DNA of 64,000 nucleotides from Patescibacteria group bacterium. Its GTDB lineage: Bacteria > Patescibacteriota > Microgenomatia > UBA1400 > PJMF01. Location of the stretch: contig JBMORP010000006.1 of NCBI GenBank assembly GCA_049322655.1, positions 512,410 through 576,409 of the forward strand, in the 5' to 3' direction. This document shows positions 4,856 to 25,924 of the stretch, piece by piece. A program made the position numbers and the translations under genes. Below the pieces are notes generated by a model, which was given only the letters and a program-made list of their open reading frames with translations, was not told the origin of the DNA and made no database searches. Position 1 is the first letter of the stretch. The number at the start of each line of letters is the position of its first letter.

Positions 4856-4946
4856 ACACGATAAATCCCCTTTCTTTTGGAATCCATGAAGTATATCATA
4901 CTGATATTAATTTTTCACAAGAACTCCAGAGATAGTAATTATCACC

Positions 4947-5591
4947 ATGATTAAAATTCACCCTTACTATTTTTCCTCAACTAAAAGAGTGTTCGATTTG
5001 CTATTAGCCTTACTACTATCAATTGTTCTTTTGCCAATGCTAGTGATTATTGCCCTAATAATATTAATAACCACTGGTCAGCCAATCATTTTCAAACAAA
5101 AAAGAACTGGGCAAAATGGCAAAACTTTTACTATTTATAAGTTTAGAACCATGGAAAAAAATGCTGCCTTAACCAAGCATAAATATGAAAACCTCAATCA
5201 AGCACCAGCCCCAATGTTTAAAATTCATGATGATCCAAGATTTGTTGGTCTAGGTAGGTTTCTATCTAGAACTGGCTTTGATGAACTACCCCAACTGTTA
5301 AATATTATCGAGGGCAATATGAGTTTTGTTGGACCCAGACCTTTGCCCATAAAAGAAGCTGAAGCTTTACCAAAAAAATGGAAAGCTTTTAGAGAACAGG
5401 TCAAACCAGGGATTTTTTCTGAGTGGTCAATTTCTTGGGAAAGACACCAAAGTTTAGCCAAGTGGCAGAAACTAGAAGAACAAACCATGAAAAATGGGTC
5501 TATTTACAAAGACTTTTTTTATATTTATGAGGTTATTTCGTCACAATTACTTTTACTCTTAAAAAAGAAAAAACTAAAAACCAAAAATTAG
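4947..5591 (+). CDS. undecaprenyl-phosphate sugar phosphotransferase (bacterial sugar transferase family, WbaP/PglC-like small form)
   Basis: N-terminal TM, then KRVFDLLLAL...IIFKQKRTG.NGKTFTIYKFRTM...MFKIHDDPRFVGLGRFLSRTGFDELPQLLNIIEGNMSFVGPRP, the canonical sugar-transferase motif set. Confidence 0.9.
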   Translation: MIKIHPYYFSSTKRVFDLLLALLLSIVLLPMLVIIALIILITTGQPIIFKQKRTGQNGKTFTIYKFRTMEKNAALTKHKYENLNQAPAPMFKIHDDPRFVGLGRFLSRTGFDELPQLLNIIEGNMSFVGPRPLPIKEAEALPKKWKAFREQVKPGIFSEWSISWERHQSLAKWQKLEEQTMKNGSIYKDFFYIYEVISSQLLLLLKKKKLKTKN

Positions 5592-8048
5592 TTGTCTAAT
5601 TTCTTCATATCTGGCTTGATCAAACGATTTTTCCCTAATAGACTCCAAAGCAGTTTTGCATTCGTGGTTATTTTGATTCAACTCAAAACAAGTTTGAAAA
5701 GCATGTTCAGCCTTTTCCATAGAAAACAATCTCGCCAAAACATAGCCTCTTTGGGCAGGAATCCAATATAATCCATAACTATTAGCTTTTAAAAACTCAT
5801 CAAAAACTAACACTTTATTTTCATTGCTATTTTCCAGCAAAAAATCATAATAGCTTTGAAAAACTTTTTCTAAATTAACAGTCTTTTCTTGGAAAAAAAC
5901 CAAGTCTAAATATTGATTAGTTGAATATTCTGACTGAGTGATTTGAGAGATAAGTTGTAAAAGAGAAATATAGTGCCAACCCCACTGCTCTTGATCTGCT
6001 GTAAAAATTAAATTTAGGTTATCTCGGTTAAAATCATCCTTAAACCAAGCGACACTCCATTCTGCCAGGTCTAACATTCTTCTCACAAAATCGCTGCGCT
6101 TTTGTAAATTTTTATCTAAATCCAGATTATTAACTAACAAAGCATAGTAAACTTTAGCCAAAGTTTCACGATTATCGCCCCATTGTTCTGCTGGAATCTT
6201 TTCTAAACTAGTTAAAAAATCAACTTTTTCTGAAAAGGAATACCTTGTAATCAAGAGGTCTTCCAAAAAAGGAAGTTTCTTAGCCAAAGACCACTCATCA
6301 AACTTATAAGCATTTAGTAGGTTGGCTGTAGCTGAAGCTAAATTTTTATTTTTAAAATCATTTTCAGCTAAATAAATAAAAAATCTTGACCAGTCACTTT
6401 TAGTTTTATGATCCAAACTTTCTTTTTGAAAATTAATGTTGGTTTGTCGACTTACAAAAAAATCATCAATAAAAGTCATTGTCTTTCTTAATTTTTCTAC
6501 ATCTTGATGATTGTAGTGATAGGCAGGCAAATCACTTTCAATAACCAACCATGGGTTAGCTGACCACAACTGATACTCGTAAACTTCTTTTTCATCAGCT
6601 GGTAACTTAGTTAAAAGATAATCACTAAATAGAGGGAAGTAATTATCAGCTAACAGTTTTTTATCTTGAATAGAAAAATCATTATGCTCAATAAAAACTT
6701 TGGCATGATGGTAAAAATAAGGAAAAATACGAAAAGCAGTTTTTTCTTTTTCAATAAAGATCAAACCAGATACAAAAAAATTAAAAATCGAAAAAAGTAA
6801 CAACAAAGCAAAGGACAAATTTAAAAAGGGCTTAATTTTTCTAATAGAGACTGAAACTTTATTGTTGCCACCAATGAATAAACTACTTAGTAACAAAAAG
6901 GTCACAGCCAAACCAAACAAGTGAAAATTATAATCAAAAAAGATATCAAAAATAAATGAACCCAAAGCTAAAAAAACTAATTTAAAACTAAAGTCATTTT
7001 TATCTTGACCTTGAGTTTTAATATTCATAAAAACCAATAAAACAATCAAGATAAAAAATAACCCAGCAAAAACCCCACTTTCAGTGAAGATCTGAAGAAA
7101 ATCATTATGAACAAACTTAGTCCATAGTTCTGGTATCTGACGATATTGGTAAGAAACAACTTCAAAAGTACCAGGTCCGTTACCAAGCCATGGATTTCTA
7201 AAAAAAGAAATAATGGCTTGAGACCAATAAAAATGCCTAACATTAAAACTAAAATCTTCTTTGCATAACTGATCTTTATACTGAAAATCAGCAAAGTATT
7301 GACAATTATTTAGACCAGAAAAAACTAGTTGAGAGGCAAGTAATAAAATACTCAAATAAAAAATCACTTTTAAGTTTTTATCAATAAATCTTTCCTCTTT
7401 AAAAGAGTTAAATTTTAAATTAATCAGCACAAATAACTGCAAGATGGAAAGAAATAGCAAAACCCTACCAAAACTAATCATCAGCACTAAATAAAAAAAG
7501 ATAGTAATAAAAAAATAAATTTTTTTGTTTTGTTTTATAAAAGACCTAATTGATAAAGGAGCTAATAACAACAAAAAAGTACCTAAGTGATTATGCCCAT
7601 AAGAAGAATAAATTAAATTTATTGGTGGAATTTTTTCAGCTAGATTGGGCAAAAACATTAAACCGAGAGCGACAAAAGAGAGGGAAAAACCCAAAAAGAA
7701 AAAAATATCCAAAATAAATTCCCTTTCTTTGGCTGAAAAATCTAAACTAGAGAAAAAAATAAAAATCAAAAAAAGACTTACATACCTTATAAAAGTATGC
7801 AAACTAATTGCCCAAGAACTAGAAAATAATAAAGCCAAAAAAACAAATAATAAAAATCCAAAGATGGCCAACAATAAATGTGTGTTTAAGTTTTTCTTAA
7901 AAGGAAAAACCTTCTGACCAACAAAAAATACTAAACAAAATAAAAAAACTACTAAATAGCTATAAATAGTTTCTGCAAACAAAAAACTAGTTAATAAGGC
8001 TACAAAAAACAAAATAAAAAAAATAATCTTTTGCCAAGAGAAATTCAT
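5574..8048 (-). CDS. O-antigen ligase/Wzy-like polytopic membrane protein with a long C-terminal soluble repeat (TPR-like) domain, 824 aa
   Basis: Many TM helices. SSYGHNHLGTFLLLLAP resembles the Wzy_C region. The C-terminal 350 aa are hydrophilic and helical. Paralog of 19181-21181. Confidence 0.65.
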   Translation of the reverse strand: MNFSWQKIIFFILFFVALLTSFLFAETIYSYLVVFLFCLVFFVGQKVFPFKKNLNTHLLLAIFGFLLFVFLALLFSSSWAISLHTFIRYVSLFLIFIFFSSLDFSAKEREFILDIFFFLGFSLSFVALGLMFLPNLAEKIPPINLIYSSYGHNHLGTFLLLLAPLSIRSFIKQNKKIYFFITIFFYLVLMISFGRVLLFLSILQLFVLINLKFNSFKEERFIDKNLKVIFYLSILLLASQLVFSGLNNCQYFADFQYKDQLCKEDFSFNVRHFYWSQAIISFFRNPWLGNGPGTFEVVSYQYRQIPELWTKFVHNDFLQIFTESGVFAGLFFILIVLLVFMNIKTQGQDKNDFSFKLVFLALGSFIFDIFFDYNFHLFGLAVTFLLLSSLFIGGNNKVSVSIRKIKPFLNLSFALLLLFSIFNFFVSGLIFIEKEKTAFRIFPYFYHHAKVFIEHNDFSIQDKKLLADNYFPLFSDYLLTKLPADEKEVYEYQLWSANPWLVIESDLPAYHYNHQDVEKLRKTMTFIDDFFVSRQTNINFQKESLDHKTKSDWSRFFIYLAENDFKNKNLASATANLLNAYKFDEWSLAKKLPFLEDLLITRYSFSEKVDFLTSLEKIPAEQWGDNRETLAKVYYALLVNNLDLDKNLQKRSDFVRRMLDLAEWSVAWFKDDFNRDNLNLIFTADQEQWGWHYISLLQLISQITQSEYSTNQYLDLVFFQEKTVNLEKVFQSYYDFLLENSNENKVLVFDEFLKANSYGLYWIPAQRGYVLARLFSMEKAEHAFQTCFELNQNNHECKTALESIREKSFDQARYEEIRQLIFGF

Positions 8049-11362: not shown

Positions 11363-12462
11363 TGGTAATTATTAATTAATTTTATAAGTGAGTTTTTGAA
11401 TTTTTTTTCAGAGAAAAAAGCCGCTCGATTTACACAGGCTTTTTTTGAAAACTTTTTCCGCTCGAACCTCATAAGAGCTTGAATTAAAGCTGCTTCTGTT
11501 CTTTCATAAAAAAACATCCCGACATTTTGGTTAAGCACTTCTTTTACTCCACCAGAATAAAAAGCTAATACCGGCACACCCAGGCTCAAAGCCTCCACCG
11601 GCACCAACCCAAAATCTTCTTCGATCGAGGCATAAACTAAACCATAAGCTTTAGAAAAAATTTCCGCTAACTGCTTGTCTTCAACGTAACCAAGAAACTT
11701 AATATTGGTGTTAGCAATTGATTTTAAATATTTTTTTTCTGCTCCTCTACCTACCACCACTAGTTTTTTATCCAACTGGTTAAAAGCCTTAATAATCAAG
11801 TCAATGCCTTTTTGCTTGGCTAATCTAGAGAAACAAACATAGTATTCTTTTTTTGTTGCTGGCTGGTTTACTTGTGAAAAACTAGAAATTGCAGGATAAA
11901 CAACTTTTGCCTCACGACGATAATATTTTTTGATCCTTTGTTTCACTTCTAAAGAATTAGCCACTAAAATATCTGGTCTTTGAGCAGCAATGAAATCTTT
12001 TTGACGAAGCCAAGACATTAGTGGCAATAATAAAATCTTAAAAAACTTATTTTGCAAAACTCTAGTTTCATTAAATTCAGCGTAAAGATACCTGGGAGGA
12101 GTATGAATGTAAGAAAGATGTAAACTAGCTGGTGAAGTAATTACTCCCTTAGAAGAAAAGGAGTGAGAAGAAGAAATTACCAAGTCATAACCTGATAAGT
12201 CAAGATTCTCCCAATATAAATATAAAAATGGTTTTAATAAAATCGAAGCTGAGTGAATAAAAGGAATGTGATTGAAAAAAGAAGAAAAAACTTTACCTGT
12301 AGTTTTACTTTGCAATACTTCTCGGTTGTTGGCTGACAGTAACGGCACAAAAACATCGGCTTTAGGAAACATTGTCACCAAAGTGAGTAACACTCGTTCA
12401 GCTCCACCATTCTCTATAAATACATCATGAATAATGGCAATTTTTTTATACTTTTTCGTCAT
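11359..12462 (-). CDS. glycosyltransferase family 4 (GT-B)
   Basis: KIAIIHDVFIENGGAERV N-terminus; EDFGLVPVEALSLGVPVLA matches the E-x7-E motif. Confidence 0.85.
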   Translation of the reverse strand: MTKKYKKIAIIHDVFIENGGAERVLLTLVTMFPKADVFVPLLSANNREVLQSKTTGKVFSSFFNHIPFIHSASILLKPFLYLYWENLDLSGYDLVISSSHSFSSKGVITSPASLHLSYIHTPPRYLYAEFNETRVLQNKFFKILLLPLMSWLRQKDFIAAQRPDILVANSLEVKQRIKKYYRREAKVVYPAISSFSQVNQPATKKEYYVCFSRLAKQKGIDLIIKAFNQLDKKLVVVGRGAEKKYLKSIANTNIKFLGYVEDKQLAEIFSKAYGLVYASIEEDFGLVPVEALSLGVPVLAFYSGGVKEVLNQNVGMFFYERTEAALIQALMRFERKKFSKKACVNRAAFFSEKKFKNSLIKLINNYQ

Positions 12463-13807
12463 AATATAATTTATAAATATGAGGCAGTAAGCCTCTAATA
12501 AAAAAGAACGTCATAAAGCCTTGTGCACCATAACCATTATCAGTAATACCATAAAGAATCCAAGTCCAAGAACTCAGACTAAATAAAAAATATTTTTTAA
12601 AACTTTCTTTGTTATCGCCTTTATAAAATAATTGAGTTAAAGCCATAAAATCATGTTTGATAAATACTGCTAACAACAATAAAAAAGTAATTAAACCATA
12701 AAGACCAGTGTCAGCTAACCTCTCAATAAAAACATTATGAATTCCAATTCCATGATCCACTTTAAAAGTATACTGCATGGTTCCATCGGAATAATATCTT
12801 CTAATTGGGAAGTCGCTTACAGTGTTGTAAGTATTGCCACCAGTACCAAAAATAGGAAAATGTCTAAAATTATTCAAAGCCGTTTGCCAATAGGTATAAC
12901 GCATGTCAATTGTTTCTTTATCTCTTTCCAATTGAGGCCTCAAAATTCTTTCTTCTAAATTAAAACCAAAATAAGTTTGGGTTACTAATAAGCCAAAAGC
13001 AGCAATCAACATGGCTGGCAATAACAATGAAACAAAAATTTTTCTAGAAAACAAAAAAGCAAAACAAAGAAAATGAAGAGCAATCACCAAAACATCAATT
13101 CTGTTATTACTAATAACAGCCGTCAAAATAGTAATCAGAATCATGAAATAAGATAGAATTTTTTGGTTAATAGAAGCTTTTTTTTCAACTAAAAAAACTG
13201 TTGTTAAAGGAAAAAGAATAATATAAGGACCAATACTTACATACTTACCATATTGCCTAATTTCTTCCAAAGCAAAAATTAGTCGATGATCTAAAAATAA
13301 AAAATAATAAATATTATCGACTGAATATCTAAAAATAATTGAAAAAAATGAAAAAGTGAAAGTTAGAAAAATAAAAGCGATACTCAAAAACAAAAATAAA
13401 TAAAGATGTTTTTTTTCTATTTTCACTCTAGATAAAACAAAAAATATTAAAGTTGCCATCAATGGATACCACAAGTGAAGGAGTGAACTGGCCAAATCTA
13501 AAGAGAAAGCTGCTGATAAAAAAAATGAAGATAAAAATAAAAGAAATACTAGATTATTTGTAACCAAATATTGGTTCTTTTTTTTATCTAATAACATCAA
13601 GCCAAACAACACTAAAGACAATGCTTTGGCAAAACCATGGGTAGCCTTGGGACCAGGAAAAACCCACCTAAAAGACTCAAAGTAACTAATAGAAAAAATT
13701 AAAAAAACCAAAGCAATTAAAATCGAAGCAAAATTTTTTTCAATAAACAAATCAATTAGCAATTGTTTACCAGAAACCAGCAGTTGTTGGTATTTTTTTA
13801 ATCTCAC
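12446..13807 (-). CDS. O-antigen ligase/Wzy-like polytopic membrane protein (453 aa)
   Basis: Multi-TM; the large loop DHGIGIHNVFIERLADTGLYGLITFLLLL matches the Wzy_C signature. Confidence 0.65.
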   Translation of the reverse strand: MRLKKYQQLLVSGKQLLIDLFIEKNFASILIALVFLIFSISYFESFRWVFPGPKATHGFAKALSLVLFGLMLLDKKKNQYLVTNNLVFLLFLSSFFLSAAFSLDLASSLLHLWYPLMATLIFFVLSRVKIEKKHLYLFLFLSIAFIFLTFTFSFFSIIFRYSVDNIYYFLFLDHRLIFALEEIRQYGKYVSIGPYIILFPLTTVFLVEKKASINQKILSYFMILITILTAVISNNRIDVLVIALHFLCFAFLFSRKIFVSLLLPAMLIAAFGLLVTQTYFGFNLEERILRPQLERDKETIDMRYTYWQTALNNFRHFPIFGTGGNTYNTVSDFPIRRYYSDGTMQYTFKVDHGIGIHNVFIERLADTGLYGLITFLLLLAVFIKHDFMALTQLFYKGDNKESFKKYFLFSLSSWTWILYGITDNGYGAQGFMTFFFIRGLLPHIYKLYYDEKV

Positions 13808-14582: not shown

Positions 14583-15746
14583 ATGAAAGTGCTCATTCTC
14601 CACCAAGACATAGCCGGAGGCACTAAAAATGCCACCGAGGCTATTATTAAAGAGCTAAAAACTGAATTACGTAGTCACCAATTTATTGTCTATAAACAAC
14701 CAGATCCAATAATCAAAGGTAGATTGAGGTATACCAGACATTTAATTTGGTCAATTTGGGATTTTTATAGATACTTGAATAAAAGAAAGCTAAAAAATAT
14801 TGACCGAATTTATTTCAATATCTATTCATGTGCGGTGGCTAAATTTTTTTCTCAACATAAAAACACGCCTGCTTTTTTTCATTTTCATGGCAACCAAGAG
14901 TTTGTTAAGTCATTAAAATCAGAAACTAACAGATTTTTTATTGGGAAAATATACAACAAATTACTTGGGAAGATTGTCAATGAACTCCAAAGATTTGCTT
15001 TTTCTTACTCAGATAAGGTCTGTTTTGTATCAGCCTTTGCAAAAAATCAATTTCTTAAACAACAAAAAATGCAAGAATATTCTCATAAAACTATTGTTAT
15101 CCCCAATGGGGTTAATTTTGAAAAATTTTTCCCAATTGATAAATTAAAAAAACAAAAAATCCTAACCAAATTTAATTTTATTCAACCAAAAAACAAAATC
15201 ATTACTTACTCAGGCAGGATTGATGAAAAAAAAGGTATTGATAAAATTATTTTTGCTCTTAAAAAATATGATCACAACAATACTCATTTGTTTATTGTTC
15301 ATCCACAACCACGAGAAAACCAATCGATTCTTTATAAAAAATGGCTAGAACAAACAATCCAAACAAACAACTTAGAAAAAAATGTTCATTTTTTCGAAAA
15401 TCCAGCTGATATTACTTCTTTCTACAAAATTTCTGACTTAGTGATTTTACCTTCTGACCGAGAATATTTTTCTCTAGTTTTACTGGAAGCCTTTGCTTGT
15501 GGCACTCCTTTTATTGGCTCAAAAGTAGGCTTCATTCCAGAGTTTCTAAGAAAAATAGATAAAAGATTAATTTTAGAAAAAAATACTGCCCAGGAAATCA
15601 ATCAAAAACTTAAATGGTTTTTTGCTTTAAGTCATCAAGAAAAAACAAAAATTATTAAAAAAGGGCTTGAAGTTAGCCAACAATTTGATTGGAAAACAAC
15701 TTCCCACAAAATCTTCAATGAACTAAAAAAATTAACCAAAAACTAA
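14583..15746 (+). CDS. glycosyltransferase family 4 (GT-B)
   Basis: Nucleotide-sugar binding motif SLVLLEAFACGTPFIGSKVG (E-x7-E). Confidence 0.8.
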   Translation: MKVLILHQDIAGGTKNATEAIIKELKTELRSHQFIVYKQPDPIIKGRLRYTRHLIWSIWDFYRYLNKRKLKNIDRIYFNIYSCAVAKFFSQHKNTPAFFHFHGNQEFVKSLKSETNRFFIGKIYNKLLGKIVNELQRFAFSYSDKVCFVSAFAKNQFLKQQKMQEYSHKTIVIPNGVNFEKFFPIDKLKKQKILTKFNFIQPKNKIITYSGRIDEKKGIDKIIFALKKYDHNNTHLFIVHPQPRENQSILYKKWLEQTIQTNNLEKNVHFFENPADITSFYKISDLVILPSDREYFSLVLLEAFACGTPFIGSKVGFIPEFLRKIDKRLILEKNTAQEINQKLKWFFALSHQEKTKIIKKGLEVSQQFDWKTTSHKIFNELKKLTKN

Positions 15747-16597
15747 TTAACCGGCTCTATTTCTGTAATTGCACCACTAACATTAACATTGTCGAATGGG
15801 AATAAAATAAAGAATCCCACCTTGAGTGGCTGGAACTCAGCAAAATAATCTATCCCCTCATAACGACTGGCTTTAACCTTGATTTTTAAAACCACATCAC
15901 TGCGCAGTTCATTGGTGGTAATTCTGCCAATACCACGGTCATCGTTGACCCAAACTTTGGCCACCTCAACATCGCTTTCAATAATCTCAGCCAAAACCTG
16001 ACCTTTATTATCAATCATTTTACTCCCCACCTTCATGGCTTCAGCATGCCAAGGCATGATTTCATAAAGACGTAAGGTAATAATTCTTTCTACATCTTCA
16101 CCCAAGTTACCTACTCCAGCAATGCTAATCACATTGGCATTAACATTGATATTACTAGGACTAACTTGAATAACTTTACCAATTTGCAAAGGCTCTCTTC
16201 TAAATCGATATTGATTAGATCTACCAGAGGGAGTAACCTTCAAGCGAACTTTCATCCATAGTCTTTTTCTCTCACCAAACTCAAAAGTACGAACATCCAA
16301 AACCTCAACTAAAACATTACCCTGAGGATCATACTCTACAGCCCCAGCTTGAATTGGATCGGCTAACCAGTATGGAGGATCTGGGTTATTCCACCACCAC
16401 TCACCACCAGAAGCAAATAGTTCTGCTTCAATATAAGTATCTTCCTGCAACAGCACCTTACCCACCAAAACAGCTAAAGTAACAAAAATAATGAAAAAAA
16501 GAGGTTTAAAAAGATCCCATTTACCAAATAACTTCCCATCTTGAGAAATAATCGGCGCCTTTTTATTTTTTTTAAAGATTTTAGAGAAAAACATCAT
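15743..16597 (-). CDS. N-terminal TM-anchored secreted protein with an EWWW motif (DUF4330-like, named from memory); paralog of 33968-34825
   Basis: One TM, then GGEWWWNNPDPPYWLAD. Similar to the 33968-34825 product (EEWWWQTEKQTSYWLIND) along its whole length. Confidence 0.55.
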   Translation of the reverse strand: MMFFSKIFKKNKKAPIISQDGKLFGKWDLFKPLFFIIFVTLAVLVGKVLLQEDTYIEAELFASGGEWWWNNPDPPYWLADPIQAGAVEYDPQGNVLVEVLDVRTFEFGERKRLWMKVRLKVTPSGRSNQYRFRREPLQIGKVIQVSPSNINVNANVISIAGVGNLGEDVERIITLRLYEIMPWHAEAMKVGSKMIDNKGQVLAEIIESDVEVAKVWVNDDRGIGRITTNELRSDVVLKIKVKASRYEGIDYFAEFQPLKVGFFILFPFDNVNVSGAITEIEPVN

Positions 16598-16598: not shown

Positions 16599-17351
16599 TC
16601 AATTATTCTTAGTAACTTTGGAATAGATAATTCTTAAGAGCTCCCAGAACCAGAGTACTAAAAAAATGGGAATTTGCAAGAGATATCTTCTCCACAATCT
16701 TCTGGGTTCAGTAATCAACCTAAAAAACCACTCTAAACCCAATTGTCTCAACCACTGAGGGGCTTGTTGCTTATGACCTGAAATGAAATCAAAAGCTGCC
16801 CCCACTGGCATAATATAAGCTGGGTGATTTATAAAACCTCTTAGTCTGAGTGAAGCCTCTGCTTGTTTTTTCCCTCCTAAACTAAGCCAAATAAAGTCTG
16901 GTTTGTTTTGCTCTATTTGAGCAAAATATTCATTTTCTTCGTCAGTAGTTAACTCTCTAAAAGGAGGCGATATAACACCAACAAAATTAATTGCCGGATG
17001 TTTTTGCTTAATTTTTTTAACCAATTTTGCTAATACTTCATTAGTAGAGCCATAAAAAAAATGCTTATGATTAGTCTGGGCAGTTTTTTGTAAAACCATT
17101 TCCATAACGTCTGGACCATAGATTCTCTCAGCTATAGGATCTAGTAACTTCATTAACCAAACCATGGGCATTCCATCTGGTATTAAAAAATCAATTTTTT
17201 TTAAGGTTTGTTGGGGAATTTGTAAAAACTCATTCATTGACAAGGCCGTTACAATTTTCGCTTGATCACGTTTGGAAGCTAATAAAAAATCAGTAAATTG
17301 ATCAACACTGCTGGAAACAACTTTTAATGAAAAAATTTTAAGAAAATACAC
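16599..17351 (-). CDS. WecB/TagA/CpsF family glycosyltransferase (GT26, N-acetylmannosaminyl-type transferase)
   Basis: LIPDGMPMVWL, FFYGSTNEV, FIWLSLGGKKQAEAS and EWFFRLITEPRRLWRRY are all GT26 hallmarks. Confidence 0.85.
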   Translation of the reverse strand: MYFLKIFSLKVVSSSVDQFTDFLLASKRDQAKIVTALSMNEFLQIPQQTLKKIDFLIPDGMPMVWLMKLLDPIAERIYGPDVMEMVLQKTAQTNHKHFFYGSTNEVLAKLVKKIKQKHPAINFVGVISPPFRELTTDEENEYFAQIEQNKPDFIWLSLGGKKQAEASLRLRGFINHPAYIMPVGAAFDFISGHKQQAPQWLRQLGLEWFFRLITEPRRLWRRYLLQIPIFLVLWFWELLRIIYSKVTKNN

Positions 17352-17658
17352 GATATTTAATTTTCTTTAAAAGGTTAATAACCGGGTTTATTTTTTTTGA
17401 GTCAGCCTGAATAAAACCCATTTTAATTGCTTCTTCTAACCATTGTTTAACATCTTTTTGGGCAACTGCTTTTTCCACCTTGTACTCAGTCATTACCCTA
17501 GCAATCAATTTTTCCAAAGTTTTTGGTTGATCAAGAGACAAAAAAATAAATGAAGCCAATTCATTTAAATAAAAAACATGTTTTCTGTCTGGAGAAATAA
17601 TCTTCACACCCTCTTCATCAGTATGAAAAACAAAACCACTGACTTTGGAGTAAAACAT
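17338..17658 (-). CDS. PqqD-family protein (RiPP recognition element-like, 106 aa)
   Basis: EEGVKIISPDRKHVFYLNELASFIFLSLDQPKTLEKLIARVMTEYKVEKAVAQKDVKQWLEEAIKMGFIQ fits the PqqD consensus (yy-LN-t-a-IW-ll-g-t-eeI...dv-Fl-L-G-I). Confidence 0.75.
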   Translation of the reverse strand: MFYSKVSGFVFHTDEEGVKIISPDRKHVFYLNELASFIFLSLDQPKTLEKLIARVMTEYKVEKAVAQKDVKQWLEEAIKMGFIQADSKKINPVINLLKKIKYRVFS

Positions 17659-17679
17659 TTGTAAAATTTATCTCTTAGG

Positions 17680-17811
17680 TTAATACTTAAGAACAGCTCC
17701 AAAGGCCATTTTAACCTTAAGAGGCTTTTTATTGGTTTTCGGAGCAGAATAACCTCTTTTTTTTGATTTTTTCATATCTTTCATAGCGATAAATCCCTCA
17801 GGATCAATCAT
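17680..17811 (-). other. unannotated 43-codon ORF (MIDPEGFIAMKDMKKSKKRGYSAPKTNKKPLKVKMAFGAVLKY) between the QueC-like and PqqD-like genes; a candidate small peptide, unproven
   Basis: Found by manual translation of the minus strand. Same strand and operon spacing (21-nt gaps). No strong SD sequence seen. Confidence 0.25.
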
Positions 17812-17832
17812 ACGGGAAAAAAACTACTGATG

Positions 17833-18771
17833 TCAAGCCTTCATCATTAGGTCTTTAGCTTGTTTTACTAACCTATAAATCAAGGTTTTGGGCCAATACT
17901 TGGTCGGATCTACATAACCTGCCACAGCAAACTCTCTTTGCCTGGATTCACAAGTTAAACATTTATTGCCACACTGATACCAACCACTCAAATAACAACT
18001 CCAGGTTTTCTCTAACGGTAACTTATTTTTCATTCCATAAGCAATTAAATCTGCTTTGGTCATAAAACTATTCATTTCCTTTTCAAAAGCAACCGAAGCA
18101 AAATTCCAATCCCACTCAGCCAAAGCTGAACAAATGCCAAGCATAGTGGTTCTCAAGGCAGTAAAAGTCTGACTAGGCACAGCCCGACCATCACCTACAG
18201 CAACAGTACAAAAAACGTGTTTAATATCAAGTTTTTGGGTGTAATACAACTCTTTAGCATAATTAACTCCAAAAAAAGCAAATAAATAAGGAGTGGTGCC
18301 AAAAATATCAATATGAGAGATACCTTTCTTACCCAAATTTTCAAGTAAAAATGAAGGATGAAGTTTTGTCTCAATATTCTTAGCTAAACTTTCCATTTCT
18401 TTAGTTGGTAGGGCTGTTGTATATTCTTTGGGCTGATGAAATTTACCTTGAGGAAAAATCTTTTGATAAAACTTGGTAAAATAATCTACAGCCGCTTTTT
18501 CTTTTTTCCAACGCTTGGTTCCTCGGTGTAAATATAGTGGGTAAACATCAAGCTTTTTAACAAAGGTTAAATAATGCCAAGCCACCGTTGAATCTATCCC
18601 CCCAGAAAGTAATAGAACTACCGGTGTTCCTGGTTTTGGCTCTTTAAAAACATAACCTCTTTTTTTAAGAAAAAATTTTTCGACAGCTTGAATAGTTTGC
18701 CAATCTTCTAGTTTTCTTGATTTGATAAATTTTTTAAAATCTAGCAGATCTGTTTGTAATTTTTTTACCAT
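17833..18771 (-). CDS. QueC-like PP-loop ATP pyrophosphatase (7-cyano-7-deazaguanine synthase family, 312 aa, about 50 aa N-terminal extension)
   Basis: PP-loop VVLLLSGGIDST. C-terminal Zn-ribbon-like TWSCYLSGWYQCGNKCLTCESRQREF parallels QueC TCYNG..GCGQCAACHLR. Paralog of 30909-31895. Confidence 0.75.
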   Translation of the reverse strand: MVKKLQTDLLDFKKFIKSRKLEDWQTIQAVEKFFLKKRGYVFKEPKPGTPVVLLLSGGIDSTVAWHYLTFVKKLDVYPLYLHRGTKRWKKEKAAVDYFTKFYQKIFPQGKFHQPKEYTTALPTKEMESLAKNIETKLHPSFLLENLGKKGISHIDIFGTTPYLFAFFGVNYAKELYYTQKLDIKHVFCTVAVGDGRAVPSQTFTALRTTMLGICSALAEWDWNFASVAFEKEMNSFMTKADLIAYGMKNKLPLEKTWSCYLSGWYQCGNKCLTCESRQREFAVAGYVDPTKYWPKTLIYRLVKQAKDLMMKA

Positions 18772-19184
18772 AATAAATTTTTTATTTTTTTCATTATTTT
18801 ATATCTAAATACTCTGTATTTGAAAAACCTCAAAAAATAAATTCTTTGAAAAAACAGTTTATCTAAAAATATAAATAACTTCTCTTTTGCCTTACCCAAA
18901 ACTATGACTTTTTTACCAGAAAAAACAATCTGAGCAATGCCTTCTATTTGAGAAAAACTAATTTTTTGCAGTTCAAAAGCATTATCACCTTTTAAAAAAA
19001 TATCTTTACCAGTTTTCTTAATAATTCGGTGTAAAACTTTTTTATTCTTATCACTAAATAAAATTAAACTTCCTGACTGTGGATCACTCTTATCAAATGA
19101 TTTAGTAATTAAAACAATATCTTCTACTTCTATTTGTGGAGCCATACTGTCAGAAACTAATTTATAGTAAAAATTTTTCTTCAT
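18765..19184 (-). CDS. S24/S26 (LexA/signal-peptidase-like) serine peptidase domain protein without a TM or HTH
   Basis: SDSMAPQIEVEDIVLIT matches the GDSMxP-DlvlV catalytic Ser motif. KKVLHRII matches the K-R general-base region. 139 aa. Confidence 0.55.
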   Translation of the reverse strand: MKKNFYYKLVSDSMAPQIEVEDIVLITKSFDKSDPQSGSLILFSDKNKKVLHRIIKKTGKDIFLKGDNAFELQKISFSQIEGIAQIVFSGKKVIVLGKAKEKLFIFLDKLFFQRIYFLRFFKYRVFRYKIMKKIKNLLW

Positions 19185-21181
19185 TTAATTGACCATAAAT
19201 CTAATATTTTTAACACTTCTTCTTTTTTTGGCGAAACATGATTATCAACATTAGAGCTTTCTACCGAACTTTTTAAGAAACCATAATAATCATAGCCATA
19301 ACCACCCAAGTAACTAAATCTAATATCTTTAAAATTAATAATAAAATCAAAAAAATCAATACTGGGCATATCATCGATAAAAATAGGTTGATGATAATCC
19401 AAAGACCATGGATCCAATTCCCTAGTTAAAACATAAAGTTCACCAGCAGAACTAACATCACCCTCTCTATAAAAATCATCAGCTATTAAAAAAATCTTGT
19501 CAATTAAAAAAAGCAAGTTACTGTGATCCAACCTCTCTGTAAAATCGTTGTTTCTCGTTTTTAAAAAATCTACCATTTGAATAACCATGTTTTTTTTATC
19601 TTCCAAAGAAAACTGGTTATCACCCAAATAACTAAGAGATAAATAAAATCCAGACCATGGATTAACCTCATTTAATTTTATTAATAATTTCTGCTGAAAT
19701 AATTTATCCAAATCATTTTCTGCTAAAGCCTGTAAAACCAAACTATTGTTTTGGTTTATTGAGAATAACTTTTGTTTATCATCATAAGCGAGTTGCTTAC
19801 TTTTGGCATATAAAACGCTGTGCCATTTTGAATAAGGAAATAAATTAAAAGCTAATTTTTCCTTTCCCAAAGAAACTAATAAATCAATAAAAATATAAAA
19901 AACTAGAAAAATTAAACAAACAAACCAAGTCAAAAAAAATGGTAATTTAAAAAATTGTTTGTGGTGTTTATTTTTTTGTTGAGGAATCAGTTTTACTAAA
20001 AAAATTAAAGTTAAAATAAAAATACTTTCAAAATTTAAGTCATAATCAAAAAGAGAATTTAGATAAACTCCAAATAAAGCTAAACCAATAAAAAAATGTA
20101 TGTCTTTTTTCTGAAAACTTTGCTTGAAAAATTTAATAAATAATCCCCAAAAAATAAAAATAAATAAACTACCACCCAAAAAACCATTTTCAGCAAAAAC
20201 CTTAAGAAAAAAGTTATGAGGATGAGCAGAAACTACACTTCGATCTTGAATATATTTTTTGGAGAAAAAAGCATAATTACCCTGACCAACTCCTAAAAGT
20301 GAATTATTTTTAATAATTTCACCAGCTGTTTGCCAATAAGCAATTCTACTTTGACCACTTTTAATCCTACAAATCTTCAAGTTATCTGAACTAGCTTCTT
20401 GATTGTAACAACTCACTGCAGTAATAAACCAAAAAGAAACAAAAGATATTGTTAAGACTAAAAAAACTTTTAAATAAGTTAAAAAGTATTTTTTATTCAA
20501 CTCAGTGAGTTTGTTAATAAAAAAATTTCTAAAAAAAACAAAAAAGAAAAAGTGTTGAAGAACAATAATAATAGAAATGATTCTTCCCATCGACAAAAAT
20601 CCAAATAAACTAAAAATTCCAACCACTAAAAGCTGTTTTTTATCACCATTTTTTAAAAAGTAGAAAAAAGATATTGGCAACAAAAACAATGAAACTACTG
20701 CTGCATGATTATGACCAGTAGAAGAATACAATAAATTAGACTCAGGCAATTTTTCACCCAAACTAGGAAAAAATGAAAAAAATAGAGAAAAAAAGATTAA
20801 AGAAAAACCAATTAAGGTAAATAAAGGAAAAAAATTTTTAAAATCAAATTCTTCTACTTTTAACAGTAAAAAAAAATGAAAAAAATAAAAACTAAAAATG
20901 AAAAAAATAAAATAATCTAGACTATAAGGAATATTTTTAGTCCAAAAAAAAGATAAACCCAAAAAAACAATTAAAAGTAACCAAGCTAAAGAATATTTTT
21001 TAGTGATAAAGATTTTAGAAAAATCTAGACTTTTCCAAAAAAAAACTGAACCAATTAAAAAAAATAGTAGTAGATAAGGAGATAAAAAAGAATTACCCAT
21101 TAGTAATAATAAAAAAAACCAAACAGAAACAAAAAAAGATAATTTGTTTTTAGCCAAAGACTCAATTAATAACTTAGTCAT
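19181..21181 (-). CDS. O-antigen ligase/Wzy-like polytopic membrane protein with a C-terminal soluble domain (666 aa); paralog of 5574-8048
   Basis: LLYSSTGHNHAAVVSLFLLP is shared with the 5574 product (LIYSSYGHNHLGTFLLLLAP). Multi-TM. C-terminal hydrophilic domain of about 250 aa. Confidence 0.65.
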   Translation of the reverse strand: MTKLLIESLAKNKLSFFVSVWFFLLLLMGNSFLSPYLLLFFLIGSVFFWKSLDFSKIFITKKYSLAWLLLIVFLGLSFFWTKNIPYSLDYFIFFIFSFYFFHFFLLLKVEEFDFKNFFPLFTLIGFSLIFFSLFFSFFPSLGEKLPESNLLYSSTGHNHAAVVSLFLLPISFFYFLKNGDKKQLLVVGIFSLFGFLSMGRIISIIIVLQHFFFFVFFRNFFINKLTELNKKYFLTYLKVFLVLTISFVSFWFITAVSCYNQEASSDNLKICRIKSGQSRIAYWQTAGEIIKNNSLLGVGQGNYAFFSKKYIQDRSVVSAHPHNFFLKVFAENGFLGGSLFIFIFWGLFIKFFKQSFQKKDIHFFIGLALFGVYLNSLFDYDLNFESIFILTLIFLVKLIPQQKNKHHKQFFKLPFFLTWFVCLIFLVFYIFIDLLVSLGKEKLAFNLFPYSKWHSVLYAKSKQLAYDDKQKLFSINQNNSLVLQALAENDLDKLFQQKLLIKLNEVNPWSGFYLSLSYLGDNQFSLEDKKNMVIQMVDFLKTRNNDFTERLDHSNLLFLIDKIFLIADDFYREGDVSSAGELYVLTRELDPWSLDYHQPIFIDDMPSIDFFDFIINFKDIRFSYLGGYGYDYYGFLKSSVESSNVDNHVSPKKEEVLKILDLWSIK

Positions 21182-23293: not shown

Positions 23294-24407
23294 TGAAATA
23301 CTCTCTTATAGCAGTTTTTATTCTGTTAATTTCTGCTTCTGTTAATTCGGGGAATAAAGGTAAAGAAATTGTTTGTCGAGCAAATTCTTCTGCCACAGGA
23401 AAATCTCCTTTTTTATAACCTAAAAACTTCATTGAGGGCTGGAGATGAACCGGCGTAGGGTAATAAATACCAGTCGAAATTTGTTGATCATTCATAAATT
23501 TTTCAAATTTTTTTCTGTTTTTCATTTGCACAGAAAAAACATAAAAATTTGGTTTACTGGTCGGATAGCAAAACATTCCTTGATGACCAAATTCTCTAAA
23601 AACATGATTATATTCTTCAACTATTCGCCTTCTTTTTTTGATCCATTCAGGAAAAAACTCTAGTTTTTTAAGCAAAAATGCAGCCTGAATATTGTCAATT
23701 AGTTCATTCATACCAACCAAAGAATGTAGATATTTTTTACTTTTATCTTTAATTCCATGGTGAGCATATTGTTCTGCTTTTTTTATTAATTTGGCAGAGT
23801 TACTTGTTAACACCCCAGCATTGCCCAAAGAACCCAAAGACTTGGAAGGATAAAGAGAGAAACAACCAAAGTGACCAAAAGAACCAACTTTTTTACCATT
23901 TAGTTCACTGCCATGAGCGTGTGACGCATCTTCAAGTAAAAACAACCGGTGTTGATTAGCTATCTTTTTTAATCTAAACATATCAGCCGGAACTCCATAA
24001 AGATGAACTACTAGAATTGCTTTAGTATTTTTAGTTATTTTTTCTTCCACTGACCGAGGGTCTAGATTACCTGTTTTTGGATCAACATCTGCAAAAACTG
24101 GCTTGGCACCAGCTAAAATAATAGCGTCAACCGTAGCACTAAAAGTGGCAGGGGTCGTAATAACCTCATCATGACTAGTTAGACCAAGAGATTTTAAAGC
24201 TACCCACAAACTAGCTGTTCCAGACCTAATGCCCAAAGCAAACTTACTATCATGCATTTTGGCAAATAAATTCTGAAAATCTTCAGTTTCACGCCCATAA
24301 GTAAAAGCCGACTGATCAAGTAACTTTGAAAAAATCTGCTCAAAATCTTTTTTAAGAGCTAAATGTTGTCGAGATAAATCAAACAGGGGTATTTTTTTAG
24401 ATGACAT
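23280..24407 (-). CDS. DegT/DnrJ/EryC1/StrS family PLP-dependent sugar aminotransferase
   Basis: DASHAHGSELNGKKVGSFGHFGCFSLYPSKSLGSLGNAGVLTSN is the characteristic block with the PLP-Lys in the SKSLG context. Confidence 0.85.
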   Translation of the reverse strand: MSSKKIPLFDLSRQHLALKKDFEQIFSKLLDQSAFTYGRETEDFQNLFAKMHDSKFALGIRSGTASLWVALKSLGLTSHDEVITTPATFSATVDAIILAGAKPVFADVDPKTGNLDPRSVEEKITKNTKAILVVHLYGVPADMFRLKKIANQHRLFLLEDASHAHGSELNGKKVGSFGHFGCFSLYPSKSLGSLGNAGVLTSNSAKLIKKAEQYAHHGIKDKSKKYLHSLVGMNELIDNIQAAFLLKKLEFFPEWIKKRRRIVEEYNHVFREFGHQGMFCYPTSKPNFYVFSVQMKNRKKFEKFMNDQQISTGIYYPTPVHLQPSMKFLGYKKGDFPVAEEFARQTISLPLFPELTEAEINRIKTAIREYFIGEK

Positions 24408-25152
24408 AATAATATTTACCTTGTTTTTTTAAAAATTCTATATATTCATCAATCACTTCTTCTCCACCATCACCTCTGATAATACCTTTTTCCAACCAAA
24501 TAATCCGATTGCAATTTCTTCTAATATACTCAAGCCAATGGCTAACTAAAATAATTGTTTTTCCATGTTTAGAAAACTCATTAATTTTTTTCATTGATTT
24601 TTTACGAAACTTCTCATCACCAACAGCAATTTCTTCATCCAGAATCAAAACATCAGGGTTCGAGTGGATAGCAATTGCAAAACCCAATCGCAGTGACATT
24701 CCAGAAGAGTAAGTATAAAGTGGCGCATAAATAAACTCTCCAAGGCCGCTAAACTCTACAATTGACTCAAATTTTCGTTGGATTTCATCTTTATCCATAC
24801 CAATCACCAAACCATTCAAAAAAATATTTTCCTTACCAGTTAGTTCTGGATGAAAACCAGCTCCAAGTTCAATTAGTGAAACAACTTTACCATAAGTCTT
24901 TATTTTTCCCCCGCTTTGAGTAGTTATACCTGAAGCAATTTTTAATAAAGTTGTTTTACCTGAACCATTAGAGCCAATAACCCCAATTTTTTCTCCTTTA
25001 TAAATTTCAAGAGAGACATCTTTTAAAGCAAAAAACTTTTGTCGTTTTTCTATCCCAAAAATAGTGCCAAAAAAAGTTGGTTTTTGGTGGTGCAAAACAT
25101 ATTCTTTAGATATCTTATTGATCGTAATTGCTTTACTATTCTTTTTTCTCAT
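24397..25152 (-). CDS. ABC transporter ATP-binding protein, polysaccharide/teichoic-acid export type (Wzt/TagH-like)
   Basis: Walker A GSNGSGKTT, signature YSSGMSLRLGFA, Walker B ILILDE. Confidence 0.85.
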   Translation of the reverse strand: MRKKNSKAITINKISKEYVLHHQKPTFFGTIFGIEKRQKFFALKDVSLEIYKGEKIGVIGSNGSGKTTLLKIASGITTQSGGKIKTYGKVVSLIELGAGFHPELTGKENIFLNGLVIGMDKDEIQRKFESIVEFSGLGEFIYAPLYTYSSGMSLRLGFAIAIHSNPDVLILDEEIAVGDEKFRKKSMKKINEFSKHGKTIILVSHWLEYIRRNCNRIIWLEKGIIRGDGGEEVIDEYIEFLKKQGKYYYVI

Positions 25153-25156: not shown

Positions 25157-25924
25157 CTACATCCAATCATCAAAGTTTTTGCTTTCTTTTCTAAAAACAG
25201 TTAAAGCTAAAACAAAGATTACAAAACTAATTAACAAGTTAATGACCAGCTTAATAGAAACATCTTCAATTGGATAACCAGATAAAGAAAACCTAATAAC
25301 TTCAACAGTCAGTGACAATGGGTTCAAATAAATAATTGATCTTAAAAACTTTGGAATCATCTCTAGTGAATAAACAATGGGGGTAGCGTAAAACCAAAGA
25401 GATAACATTGCTTGAACAATAAAGTTAATATCCCGGTATTTAACATTTAAACTAGAAAATAAAAGTGAGATACCAATCGTAAAAAAAAGTAATAGAAATA
25501 AGCCTGGAATTAACCAAAAAATCTTCAAAGAAAAACTCAAAGTTAGTAATGAAAATAAAGCAAAACCTATCAACAAATGAAATAAATTAGAAAGAATAAC
25601 TGAAATCACCAAAGATTCTCTAGGAAAAATGGCTTTTTTAATTAAATATCTTTCATTAACAAAAATAGGAACTGCTTTAGAAAAACTTAATGAGAAAAAA
25701 TTCCAAGTTAACAATCCAGAAAACAAAAACACAAAATAATTATCAATCTCAAATTTAATAAAAAATTGAAAAACAAAACCAATCACTAACATTTGAAACA
25801 ATGGATTTAAAATCATCCACAAAAAACCAAAAGCAGCGTGCTTATATCTTGATTTTATTTCTCTCTCTGTCAGAGTGACCGTAAAATCAAACCAATGTTT
25901 CAATTTTTTGTTGCTCTTTAGCAT
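25157..25924 (-). CDS. ABC-2 type transporter permease (Wzm/TagG-like)
   Basis: 255 aa, 6 TM, adjacent to the Wzt-like ATPase. Confidence 0.8.
   Translation of the reverse strand: MLKSNKKLKHWFDFTVTLTEREIKSRYKHAAFGFLWMILNPLFQMLVIGFVFQFFIKFEIDNYFVFLFSGLLTWNFFSLSFSKAVPIFVNERYLIKKAIFPRESLVISVILSNLFHLLIGFALFSLLTLSFSLKIFWLIPGLFLLLFFTIGISLLFSSLNVKYRDINFIVQAMLSLWFYATPIVYSLEMIPKFLRSIIYLNPLSLTVEVIRFSLSGYPIEDVSIKLVINLLISFVIFVLALTVFRKESKNFDDWM

Follow-up and report, generated by a model that had tools for sequence, protein, structure and literature searches.

A QueC-like gene cassette in a glycan biosynthesis locus

We analyzed a window of 64,000 nucleotides from a metagenome-assembled genome of a Patescibacteria bacterium, a member of the candidate phyla radiation (CPR; contig JBMORP010000006.1, with coordinates counted from the start of the window), and describe here a compact cassette built around a QueC-like enzyme that is a candidate for a new peptide-maturation pathway. 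In the open reading frame (ORF) listing, the cassette appears as four co-directional genes on the minus strand. In the direction of transcription, these encode a soluble serine peptidase of the SpI/SipW type (S26B-like; 139 amino acids (aa), 18765-19184; PF00717, TIGR02228), a QueC-family PP-loop ATPase of 312 aa hereafter called Q1 (17833-18771; PF06508, PADLOC QueC), a putative precursor or scaffold peptide (17680-17784), and a discrete PqqD-family protein of 106 aa (17338-17658; PF05402) that resembles the RiPP recognition elements (RREs) of pathways for peptides that are ribosomally synthesized and modified post-translationally (RiPPs).

Overlapping start and stop codons tie the cassette to a Wzy_C gene upstream, whose stop codon overlaps the start codon of the peptidase gene, and to a WecG/TagA-family glycosyltransferase gene downstream (16599-17351, minus strand; PF03808, E=7e-53). 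The start of the latter overlaps the stop codon of the PqqD gene by 14 nucleotides, and the same order recurs in the related loci L001 and L090. By this overlap the glycosyltransferase gene belongs to the same operon and ties the cassette to glycan synthesis.

In a 652-kb NCBI contig that carries identical proteins, Q1 and a second QueC-like paralogue from the same window (Q2, described below) are both named 7-cyano-7-deazaguanine synthase (NCBI record of the window: MFZ5438243.1, MFZ5438244.1 and MFZ5438257.1). The small peptide gene is absent from that annotation, as the consecutive accessions of its two flanking genes show.

A distinct family of QueC-like enzymes

The assignment of Q1 to the QueC family of PP-loop ATPases with a carboxy-terminal zinc ribbon, first proposed from the letters of the sequence, agrees with both profile and fold comparisons. 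Q1 matches PF06508 (E=2.6e-11) over the carboxy-terminal Zn-ribbon part only, and it matches the PADLOC QueC model (E=6.8e-14) in two stretches that cover the PP-loop and the carboxy terminus. The SGGIDS PP-loop and the Cys residues of the Zn ribbon are both present in the alignment. An AlphaFold2 (AF2) model of Q1 has a predicted local distance difference test score (pLDDT) of 92, and its top Foldseek matches are QueC (2pg3 and 3bl5) and Cap9 (9nto_B), with template modelling (TM) scores of 0.68-0.78 normalised to the target. Cap9 is also the closest solved relative in a sequence-profile search of the PDB (9nto_B, E=1e-12). A single-sequence search of the same database gave Cap9 only weakly and returned SENP2 and fractalkine as relatives, which we rejected as spurious. 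The hhalign comparison with canonical QueC yields a probability of 99.95% over 221 columns.

Residues retained throughout the QueC-like family include the PP-loop, a Glu, D194, K239, and a Zn ribbon of the form TWSCY...CG..C..C..R. A 2026 survey of the QueC family defined the motifs YxQxHxxE, VPxRN and YPDC for the site that binds 7-carboxy-7-deazaguanine (CDG) (PMC13329287). None of these is found in the columns of the profile-profile alignment to QueC, except for the Glu. Furthermore, Q1 and Q2 score only 26.1 and 33.7 bits against the QueC model TIGR00364, for which the cutoff is 150.3. As judged from these comparisons, Q1 belongs to a distinct QueC-like family that lacks the canonical 7-deazaguanine-binding motifs. 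Because the CDG motifs are absent and the scores fall far below the TIGR00364 cutoff, the name 7-cyano-7-deazaguanine synthase is probably a systematic misannotation of the whole family.

Several other assignments were considered. No match to a QueD/PTPS-type or QueE-type protein was found among the scanned ORFs, which represent part of those in the window, or in the related loci. A sugar-amidotransferase model gave no match, and the NCBIfam matches of Q1 and Q2 comprise only QueC, the PRK08349 subfamily, ThiI, QatC and ArgG-related models. A role as a defence system of the Qat type or of the cyclic-oligonucleotide-based antiphage signalling system (CBASS) was ruled out, since PADLOC, applied to the four cassette proteins, matched nothing beyond its generic QueC model, and partners of the Qat or CBASS type were absent.

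The family is large. A search of a large sequence database recovered about 80 clusters of proteins with 290-350 aa, after which the E values drop sharply from 3.5e-20 to 1e-8 and canonical QueC proteins of about 220 aa follow. An exhaustive profile search at E<=1e-30 extended the family to at least 253 representatives (clusters at 50% identity), most of them from CPR bacteria. Its members are longer by about 90 residues, which fall in a helical extension at the N-terminus, where a KKRGY motif is invariant, and in an insertion. According to a custom hidden Markov model (HMM), 35 of 217 family members have a carboxy-terminal PqqD domain, and Pfam likewise identifies the QueC-like-PqqD fusion in proteins P0075 and P0081. 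Another member, P0108 (447 aa), has its QueC-like domain (residues 1-322) fused to a SpI-like peptidase domain (residues 335-438). The distant members at L028, L029, L032 and L033 (about 29% identity) combine a QueC-like-PqqD fusion with further PqqD genes that stand alone, and each of these loci holds two genes for SpI-like peptidases. Together with the fusions of S24-type peptidase domains to ATPases of ATP-binding cassette (ABC) transporters that are described below, the predicted QueC-like-PqqD and QueC-like-S24 proteins link the parts of the cassette functionally.

A short peptide gene with its own promoter

The small ORF was originally noted as a 43-codon frame, and such an ORF is indeed present on the minus strand (17680-17811). 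However, its ATG (17811) falls within the -10 box of a sigma-70-type promoter (TTGACA-18-TATGAT, 17836->17807) that lies directly after the stop codon of Q1, and homologous peptides in related loci begin at a later Met. Translation is therefore likely to start at Met10 (17784) or Met13 (17775), and the true length of the peptide is probably 34 or 31 aa rather than 43. The 34-aa form reads MKDMKKSKKRGYSAPKTNKKPLKVKMAFGAVLKY. Its N-terminus is rich in Lys, a YSAPKT (YxxPx) leader motif follows, and the tail at the carboxy end is short and hydrophobic.

The promoter matches the consensus at 11 of 12 positions, which is the best match in the region, and its layout (TTGACA-N18-TAT(G/C)AT or TACTAT) is kept in L001, L089 and L090. 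The number of promoter-like sites across the region is not above shuffle expectation, and so the case for this promoter comes from its conservation and not from the scan alone. From the sequence and its conserved layout, the peptide gene appears to have its own near-consensus promoter.

No Pfam or NCBIfam model matches the small ORF at E<=0.1, and we accordingly dismissed the idea that this Lys-rich frame encodes a ribosomal-protein-like or other known small protein. A custom HMM built for the peptides scores E=6e-15 in the window. The original prediction asked whether the ORF is conserved at the amino acid level, and among four close relatives the in-frame dN/dS ratio is 0.06-0.13, with synonymous sites near saturation, versus 0.5-2.5 in the other two frames. 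By this measure of codon evolution, the small ORF is a genuine gene under purifying selection. In L089, a relative with 84% identity, the gene caller had itself called the peptide gene.

We also evaluated how often such a peptide accompanies the PqqD gene. Each related locus with a PqqD gene has a short Lys-rich ORF immediately upstream of it, in the same orientation. Using the pattern Met, up to 25 aa, YxxP, 10-22 aa and stop within the 360 nucleotides upstream of PqqD, an ORF of this kind is found directly upstream in 19 of 21 related loci, versus 98 of 6042 control windows drawn from the same loci (1.6%; binomial P~2e-32). The association of peptide and PqqD is far beyond chance. Examples include the peptides of L001 (MKKMKKKKYTAPKTDKKPLKVKMAFGIVIKY), L090 (MKKTAKKKYSAPKTAKKPLKVKMAFGAVVKY), L003 (MKKYTKPSLKKSKIKINFAFTIVKT), L008 (MKKYNKPVLKKAKVKISIAAVEMN) and L018 (MKKKSYNKPSVKKVALVAVAFAEPI), and the distant locus L033 carries a longer YxxP peptide of 51 aa (7090-7245, minus strand) beside its fused enzyme.

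The relatives share the motif KK-Y-x-x-P-x-(L/V/T), after which Lys alternates with hydrophobic residues. Across the cassettes, the peptides have lengths of 20-34 aa and are extremely rich in Lys, with a net charge of up to +11. The distance from the YxxP proline to the carboxy terminus is 13-19 residues and mostly 17 +/- 2, despite varying tail sequences, and in most of them a small residue, Ala or Gly, sits 3-5 positions before the end. Six of the peptides, including that of the window, contain no Asp or Glu, and therefore the carboxy terminus is their only carboxylate. The tails of ten peptides lack Cys, Ser and Thr.

The RRE and the peptidase

The stand-alone PqqD-family protein was recognized from the outset, and its match to PF05402 (E=1.8e-13; score 51 bits, cutoff 23.4) confirms this. 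Its best NCBIfam match is the lasso peptide PqqD chaperone NF033536 (E=1.8e-6), which is below cutoff. Discrete RREs of the lasso and linear polyphosphorylated peptide (LPP) types bind leaders with the motif [Y/W]xxPx[L/V/I/F/A], and mutation of YxxP abolished complex formation (PMC13381572; also PMC12710340). The YxxPx(L/V) motif of the peptides described above fits this published consensus. By analogy with these systems, the PqqD-type RRE may bind the YxxP leader.

The peptidase matches PF00717 (Peptidase_S24) at E=1.4e-6 (28.4 bits against a cutoff of 23.3), and its best NCBIfam match is the archaeal-type signal peptidase I model TIGR02228 (E=6.9e-9, below cutoff). Thus, the S24/S26 domain of the original prediction stands, but the proposed Ser-Lys catalytic pair does not. 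In 26 unique homologous peptidase domains the invariant residues are instead Ser (SM.P), His (HR) and Asp (GD), for which the predicted catalytic counterparts in the window protein are S13, H52 and D67. A homologous domain that is fused to an ABC ATPase in L003 matches SEC11C (E=2.4e-4) and SEC11A (E=7.6e-4) in the PDB. The protein is, by these conserved residues, a predicted SipW/Sec11-type Ser-His-Asp signal peptidase with a basic-aromatic, amphipathic carboxy-terminal tail. Its AF2 model, derived from a shallow alignment of seq­uences numbering seven, has a pLDDT of only 63, and Foldseek gave no significant match, the Tudor/PWWP barrels among its hits carrying no meaning.

LppS, a SipW-like protein with catalytic residues S29, H68 and D93, is an RRE-dependent leader peptidase whose cassettes lie within polysaccharide or capsule loci (PMC13381572). 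The spacing from Ser to His is 39 residues in both LppS and the window peptidase. We also considered whether the S24 peptidase is a lineage-specific addition and dropped this idea, given that elsewhere it is either fused to an ABC ATPase (L002, L003 and L008) or a small separate protein (L005).

Conservation of the cassette and a second paralogue

To establish whether the genes travel together, as the original prediction had recommended, we took a census of 24 QueC-like genes with at least 6 kb of flanking sequence, using custom HMMs and recording features within 5 kb. PqqD is near the QueC-like gene in 19 of these loci, and the peptidase is present in the same 19. An ABC-2 permease occurs in 14 loci, a Methyltransf_24 methyltransferase in 15, a pyridoxal phosphate (PLP)-dependent decarboxylase in 11, and a fusion of the peptidase with an ABC ATPase in nine. 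Members associated with RRE and peptidase are found on both of the deep branches into which the family tree divides, and the cassette is kept across distant relatives. Compact cassettes (L002, L003, L009, L012, L014, L017, L019, L027 and L091) hold a single QueC-like enzyme with all partners.

One member of the family resides in a context where RiPP biosynthesis is unmistakable. In L092, a Logan contig from SRR22388067, the QueC-like-PqqD fusion P0081 lies in an azole-forming cluster (441-7747) beside a YcaO protein, a nitroreductase-type dehydrogenase, a ScmC-family protein and a SpI-like peptidase with a hydrophobic tail. The locus also holds a methyltransferase and a GT1 glycosyltransferase, whose gene overlaps that of the fusion. 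Two YxxP peptides are encoded there on the minus strand (3720-3872 and 6287-6409), one of which ends in GGSSSS and is a typical azoline-forming substrate. The L092 cluster is probably a separate subclass of RiPP that employs this same enzyme.

The window contains a second family member, Q2 (328 aa; 30909-31895, plus strand), which matches the custom HMM at E=1e-82 and PF06508 at E=5e-12. Q2 shares 33% identity with Q1 and keeps 20 of the 21 family-invariant residues. No RRE or peptidase adjoins it. It is preceded by a MazG/dUTPase-like NTP pyrophosphohydrolase gene (30328-30912, plus strand), whose end overlaps the Q2 start, and is followed by genes on the same strand for a Methyltransf_24 methyltransferase (31885-32712; PF13578, E=1.7e-13) and a group II PLP-dependent amino acid decarboxylase (32715-33971; PF00282, E=1.5e-20) that is closest to histidine, serine and Tyr/Asp decarboxylases. 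Q2 clusters with the enzyme of L004, which likewise has no nearby RRE, and L006, L007 and L024 are also RRE-less within the available sequence. One possibility is that Q1 and Q2 each carry out one of two steps; the other is that some family members work without the peptide.

A candidate glycan-type exporter and its surroundings

An ABC-2 transporter is encoded 5.2 kb upstream of the cassette in the same minus-strand gene string. Its permease (25157-25924) matches the Wzm/RfbD model NF050109 (E=1.4e-23) and Aquifex aeolicus Wzm (PDB 6m96, E=4e-26), and its Wzt/TagH-type ATPase (24397-25152) matches TagH (E=8e-62), as the peptidase-fused ATPases of other loci do similarly. The best matches of the exporter, namely Wzm/RfbD, A. 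aeolicus Wzm, TarG and TagH, are all below equivalog cutoffs. In L089 the exporter genes directly abut the series peptidase, QueC-like enzyme, peptide and PqqD.

Wzt proteins bear a carbohydrate-binding domain at their carboxy terminus. In the nine loci with a fusion, the peptidase forms the carboxy-terminal domain of the Wzt/TagH-like ATPase. L003 and L013 each have two ABC-2 pairs of the Wzm/Wzt type (4662-6500 and 12101-13629), and the peptidase domain is found in just one of them, the pair beside the RRE, which points to a paralogous exporter with a dedicated role. Glycosyltransferases or Wzy_C proteins flank the QueC-like gene in all loci with Pfam calls except L007.

The glycan locus of the window extends from a Bac_transf initiating transferase (4947-5591) to about 38 kb. 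Four of its genes (5574-8048, 12446-13807, 19181-21181 and 34683-36260) encode membrane proteins of the Wzy_C type (O-antigen ligase/polymerase-like; 453-824 aa), and two encode DUF4330 paralogues (15743-16597 and 33968-34825), one of which closes each QueC-like sub-cluster. Such redundancy of Wzy_C and DUF4330 proteins in a glycan locus is unusual for a small CPR genome. An additional Methyltransf_24 gene is located at 37378-38076 on the minus strand.

A proposed peptide-maturation pathway and its alternatives

Within this superfamily, PP-loop enzymes act by adenylating a carboxylate or carbonyl, and QueC itself first turns a carboxylate into an amide and then the amide into a nitrile. We consider it probable, although well short of certain, that the cassette is a new RiPP-type peptide-maturation pathway built on a QueC-family enzyme, with Q1 activating the carboxy-terminal carboxylate of the peptide. 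In such a pathway, the dedicated strong promoter would drive synthesis of the 31- to 34-aa Lys-rich peptide, and the discrete PqqD-type RRE would bind its YxxPx(L/V/T) leader motif and present it to Q1. Q1 would then use ATP to adenylate a carboxylate, most likely the carboxy-terminal alpha-carboxylate, and the activated group might be converted to an amide or nitrile or be coupled to an amine. The near-constant distance from the motif to the carboxy terminus fits an RRE-anchored "ruler" that brings the peptide end to the active site. Perhaps the decarboxylase-like PLP enzyme and the Methyltransf_24 protein, which are often adjacent in relatives and here accompany Q2 (30.9-34 kb), could supply and methylate the amine. 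The SipW/Sec11-type peptidase would remove the leader, probably after the small residue located 3-5 positions from the end, and this cleavage would release a very short modified peptide for export by the Wzm/Wzt-type ABC-2 transporter.

There is precedent for chemistry of this kind. FzmA, an asparagine-synthetase-like enzyme fused to an RRE, forms a hydrazide on the carboxy-terminal carboxylate of a 22-residue YxxP peptide, which is then methylated (PMC13622209), and PesC forms a carboxy-terminal nitrile (PMC13060819). The original prediction envisaged a minimal RiPP-like peptide-maturation module. Its RiPP-like character is upheld by the conservation of the cassette, selection on the peptide, the leader motif and the fusions, but its extent proved too narrow, as the system reaches beyond the first coordinates to the Wzm/Wzt-type exporter, the Methyltransf_24 protein, the PLP decarboxylase and the second QueC-like paralogue.

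A number of points weigh against this proposal. The binding of the peptide by the RRE and the site of modification are assigned by analogy. The peptides are very short, with poorly conserved carboxy-terminal tails and no obvious core. Five of the 24 QueC-like genes, including Q2 and those of L004 and L006, have the methyltransferase and PLP decarboxylase nearby and no RRE, peptide or peptidase within 5-7 kb, and some members of the family may therefore use no peptide or have a different substrate. Since residues bound in a peptide are out of reach of a PLP decarboxylase, that enzyme must contribute indirectly. QatC, which also lacks the canonical QueC motifs, deazaguanylates a protein (PMC13329287), and thus motif loss by itself is compatible with a 7-deazaguanine substrate. 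The exporter, as far as its sequence matches indicate, resembles glycan and teichoic acid exporters and not typical RiPP exporters. Lastly, a free secreted peptide does not explain why the cassette is always embedded among glycosyltransferases.

The last two points lead to a different product, which we regard as unlikely but worth keeping in view. Q1 might join the carboxy terminus of the peptide through an amide bond to a nascent surface glycan, or else to an amine linker that the glycan bears. The acceptor could be, for example, an amino sugar made by the DegT and GFO_IDH_MocA enzymes of the operon or a linker derived from the decarboxylase. The leader would serve as a handle, and the peptidase on or near the Wzt-like ATPase would clip it at export to leave a short peptide cap, analogous to the chain-terminating caps that are read by the carboxy-terminal domain of Wzt in ABC-dependent O-antigen export. 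Such a conjugate would suit the arrangement of the cassette in one overlapping minus-strand string with Wzm/Wzt, DegT, glycosyltransferases, Wzy_C and WecG (the start of which overlaps the PqqD stop), the likeness of the exporter to Wzm/Wzt and TagGH, and the location of the peptidase in nine of 24 loci at the position where Wzt proteins generally have their carbohydrate-binding domain. The glycosyltransferase or Wzy_C neighbours present in every locus with Pfam calls apart from L007, the overlap with a GT1 gene in L092, and the occurrence of related SpI/RRE cassettes in capsule loci (PMC13381572) point in the same direction. The constant glycosyltransferase neighbours and the glycan-type exporter therefore keep a hybrid product alive as an alternative. 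However, the second, peptidase-free ABC-2 pair in L003 and L013 suggests that the fused pair serves the peptide alone and leaves the glycan to the other. The substrates of ABC-2 transporters also include small molecules and peptides, as the DrrAB and lantibiotic-protection matches show, and residence in a glycan locus may merely reflect the co-regulation of surface functions. The glycan-amidation module that was originally offered as an alternative is not our primary reading, and what persists of it is a possible link to the surrounding locus.

Two further explanations retain the enzyme but change its substrate. In the manner of Cap9 and QatC, Q1 might adenylate a small carboxylic acid and transfer it onto a Lys or the N-terminus of the peptide, whose own carboxylate would not be activated. 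The acid could be 7-carboxy-7-deazaguanine or a different metabolite, perhaps one that the decarboxylase and methyltransferase make. Cap9 is the closest solved relative by profile and is among the top fold matches, QueC-family enzymes are known to acylate protein N-termini (PMC13329287; bioRxiv 10.1101/2025.04.06.647259), the peptides offer many Lys residues, and QatC demonstrates that such chemistry tolerates loss of the canonical motifs. Nevertheless, we judge this improbable: no queD, queE, tRNA-guanine transglycosylase (TGT), cGAS/DncV-like nucleotidyltransferase (CD-NTase) or QatABD gene was found among the scanned neighbours, and PADLOC sees only a generic QueC. The Lys positions past the leader are not strictly conserved, and the constant distance from RRE motif to carboxy terminus, along with FzmA and PesC, favours the carboxy terminus. 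It is more doubtful still, to the point of being very improbable, that Q1 is a sugar amidotransferase of the WbpG/PseA/WbuX type or an ordinary preQ0 synthase, beside which PqqD and the small ORF are incidental. The genes do lie within a glycan locus, WbpG, an O-antigen enzyme, belongs to the PF06508 superfamily (PMC13329287), Q2 and the enzymes of L004 and L006 have no RRE close by, and NCBI names both paralogues as 7-cyano-7-deazaguanine synthases. Yet neither sugar-amidotransferase matches nor the CDG motifs were found, the TIGR00364 scores (26-34 bits against 150) are very low, and one member lies in a RiPP cluster of the YcaO kind that has a single glycosyltransferase nearby. Fusions to PqqD and peptidase domains and the near-perfect co-occurrence with a YxxP peptide under selection cannot be incidental.

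Other features of the window

A 23S rRNA gene occupies positions 1-2167 (minus strand; model positions 1-2154), with its 3' part cut by the window end, and it follows a tRNA-Ala(TGC) gene (2390-2465, minus strand). The high GC content of the first 2 kb is due to this rRNA gene. A tRNA-Ile gene with the uncommon anticodon TAT (UAU) is present at 42124-42197 (plus strand). In most bacteria AUA is decoded by a CAT tRNA modified with lysidine.

Just beyond the glycan locus, four successive ORFs of 256, 327, 252 and 323 aa (38196-41984, plus strand) have no Pfam match, and their GC content is 0.38-0.44 versus 0.23-0.33 in the glycan locus. They are followed by a tripartite ABC efflux set of the HlyD-like/MacB type (HlyD_D23, ABC_tran and MacB_PCD-FtsX; 42139-45169, plus strand). 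Beyond these lie a 778-aa HerA/TrwB-like ATPase (48262-50598, minus strand), an ATP-dependent DNA ligase (57411-59225) and a Fic-HTH protein (59250-60335).

Comparison with known systems

The known system closest overall is the LPP/paeninodin-type cassette of Bacillota (PMC13381572, Nat Commun 2026). Both have a discrete PqqD-type RRE, an N-terminal YxxPx(L/V) leader, a soluble SipW/archaeal-type Ser-His-Asp peptidase and a dedicated ABC exporter, and both lie within polysaccharide biosynthesis loci. The modifying enzymes differ. LPP cassettes employ an HprK-like kinase and an NTP transferase, whereas the CPR cassette features a QueC-family ATPase, a Methyltransf_24 protein and a PLP decarboxylase. 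The LPP exporter is MsbA-like, whereas the exporter here is of the ABC-2 Wzm/Wzt type and is often fused to the peptidase in relatives. No HprK-like kinase, NTP transferase or MsbA-like transporter was found in the window or in related loci. LPP peptides are also longer (35-200 aa versus 20-34 aa), and the hosts are Bacillota as opposed to CPR/Patescibacteria.

The best mechanistic analogues are FzmA/FzmZ of fosfazinomycin biosynthesis (PMC13622209) and PesC of the nitrilobacillins (PMC13060819). These likewise couple a PP-loop ATP pyrophosphatase to a discrete or fused RRE and act on a very short YxxP scaffold (about 22 aa). Their chemistry at the carboxy-terminal carboxylate (hydrazide, amide or nitrile), followed by a methyltransferase, is a feature that the cassette may share by analogy. 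They differ in that their enzymes are of the Asn_synthase family (PF00733), whereas Q1 belongs to PF06508, has a Zn ribbon and no glutaminase domain, and is accompanied by other accessory enzymes.

With QueC, Cap9 (type IV CBASS) and QatC (QatABCD), which are its nearest relatives in structure, Q1 shares the fold, the SGGxDS PP-loop, the Cys4 Zn ribbon with TWSCY and a conserved Lys. Cap9 and QatC illustrate that the QueC scaffold is able to form amide bonds to polypeptides (PMC13329287; bioRxiv 10.1101/2025.04.06.647259). However, their partners are CD-NTase/TGT or QatABD, in contrast to the RRE, peptide and peptidase of the cassette. The 2026 survey of the QueC family analyzed ten clusters, among which the family of Q1 does not appear, and it makes no mention of PqqD, RiPPs, peptides or Patescibacteria (PMC13329287).

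Lasso peptide pathways with split B1/B2 proteins resemble the cassette in their discrete PqqD-type RRE, YxxPxL leader, PP-loop ATPase that adenylates a carboxylate (in the cassette, a putative activity), leader peptidase and ABC exporter. Several of the CPR peptides, however, lack the Asp or Glu needed for an isopeptide ring, and what follows the leader is not long enough to form a lasso. Neither a transglutaminase-like B2 protease nor an Asn-synthetase-like lasso cyclase was found in the window operon or related loci. Coupling of cleavage to export is familiar from peptidase-containing ABC transporters (PCATs), in which a leader peptidase (C39 domain) is fused to the exporter. The PCAT domain is a C39 cysteine peptidase at the N-terminus of a half-transporter, whereas the domain seen in the relatives is an S26B-like serine peptidase at the carboxy terminus of a separate ATPase, and the window peptidase is itself a separate protein.

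The original prediction suggested that the combination of genes was undescribed, and full-text literature searches likewise found no QueC-family enzyme in a RiPP context. In the literature searched, there is no description of a QueC-family RRE partner, of a fusion between an S26B peptidase and a Wzt-like ATPase, or of a recurrent decarboxylase/methyltransferase pair, and searches for QueC with PqqD and for RREs in Patescibacteria returned nothing relevant. The cassette is therefore presented as a candidate for a new RiPP class in which the logic of leader, RRE, peptidase and exporter is already known from RiPP pathways. RiPP classes are defined by their modifying enzymes, and if our proposal is correct, the pairing of a QueC-family enzyme with an RRE would add a new enzyme family and probably a new carboxy-terminal chemistry. 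It would also correct the 7-cyano-7-deazaguanine synthase misannotation, add an unannotated peptide gene, and document a novel sort of ABC transporter in which the Wzt/TagH-like ATPase bears a peptidase of the S26B type. Should the peptide instead be joined to a glycan, this would be the first RiPP-polysaccharide pathway, with the leader as an export or chain-termination signal that replaces the sugar caps read by Wzt. The system is widespread in CPR/Patescibacteria, whose tiny genomes have almost no known secondary metabolism, and is invariably located in loci for surface glycans. It may therefore be relevant to the way in which these epibiotic bacteria assemble or decorate their envelope, or to their interactions with hosts. 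Its leader, RRE and peptidase most resemble those of the LPP cassettes, and its proposed chemistry would be nearest to that of FzmA and PesC.

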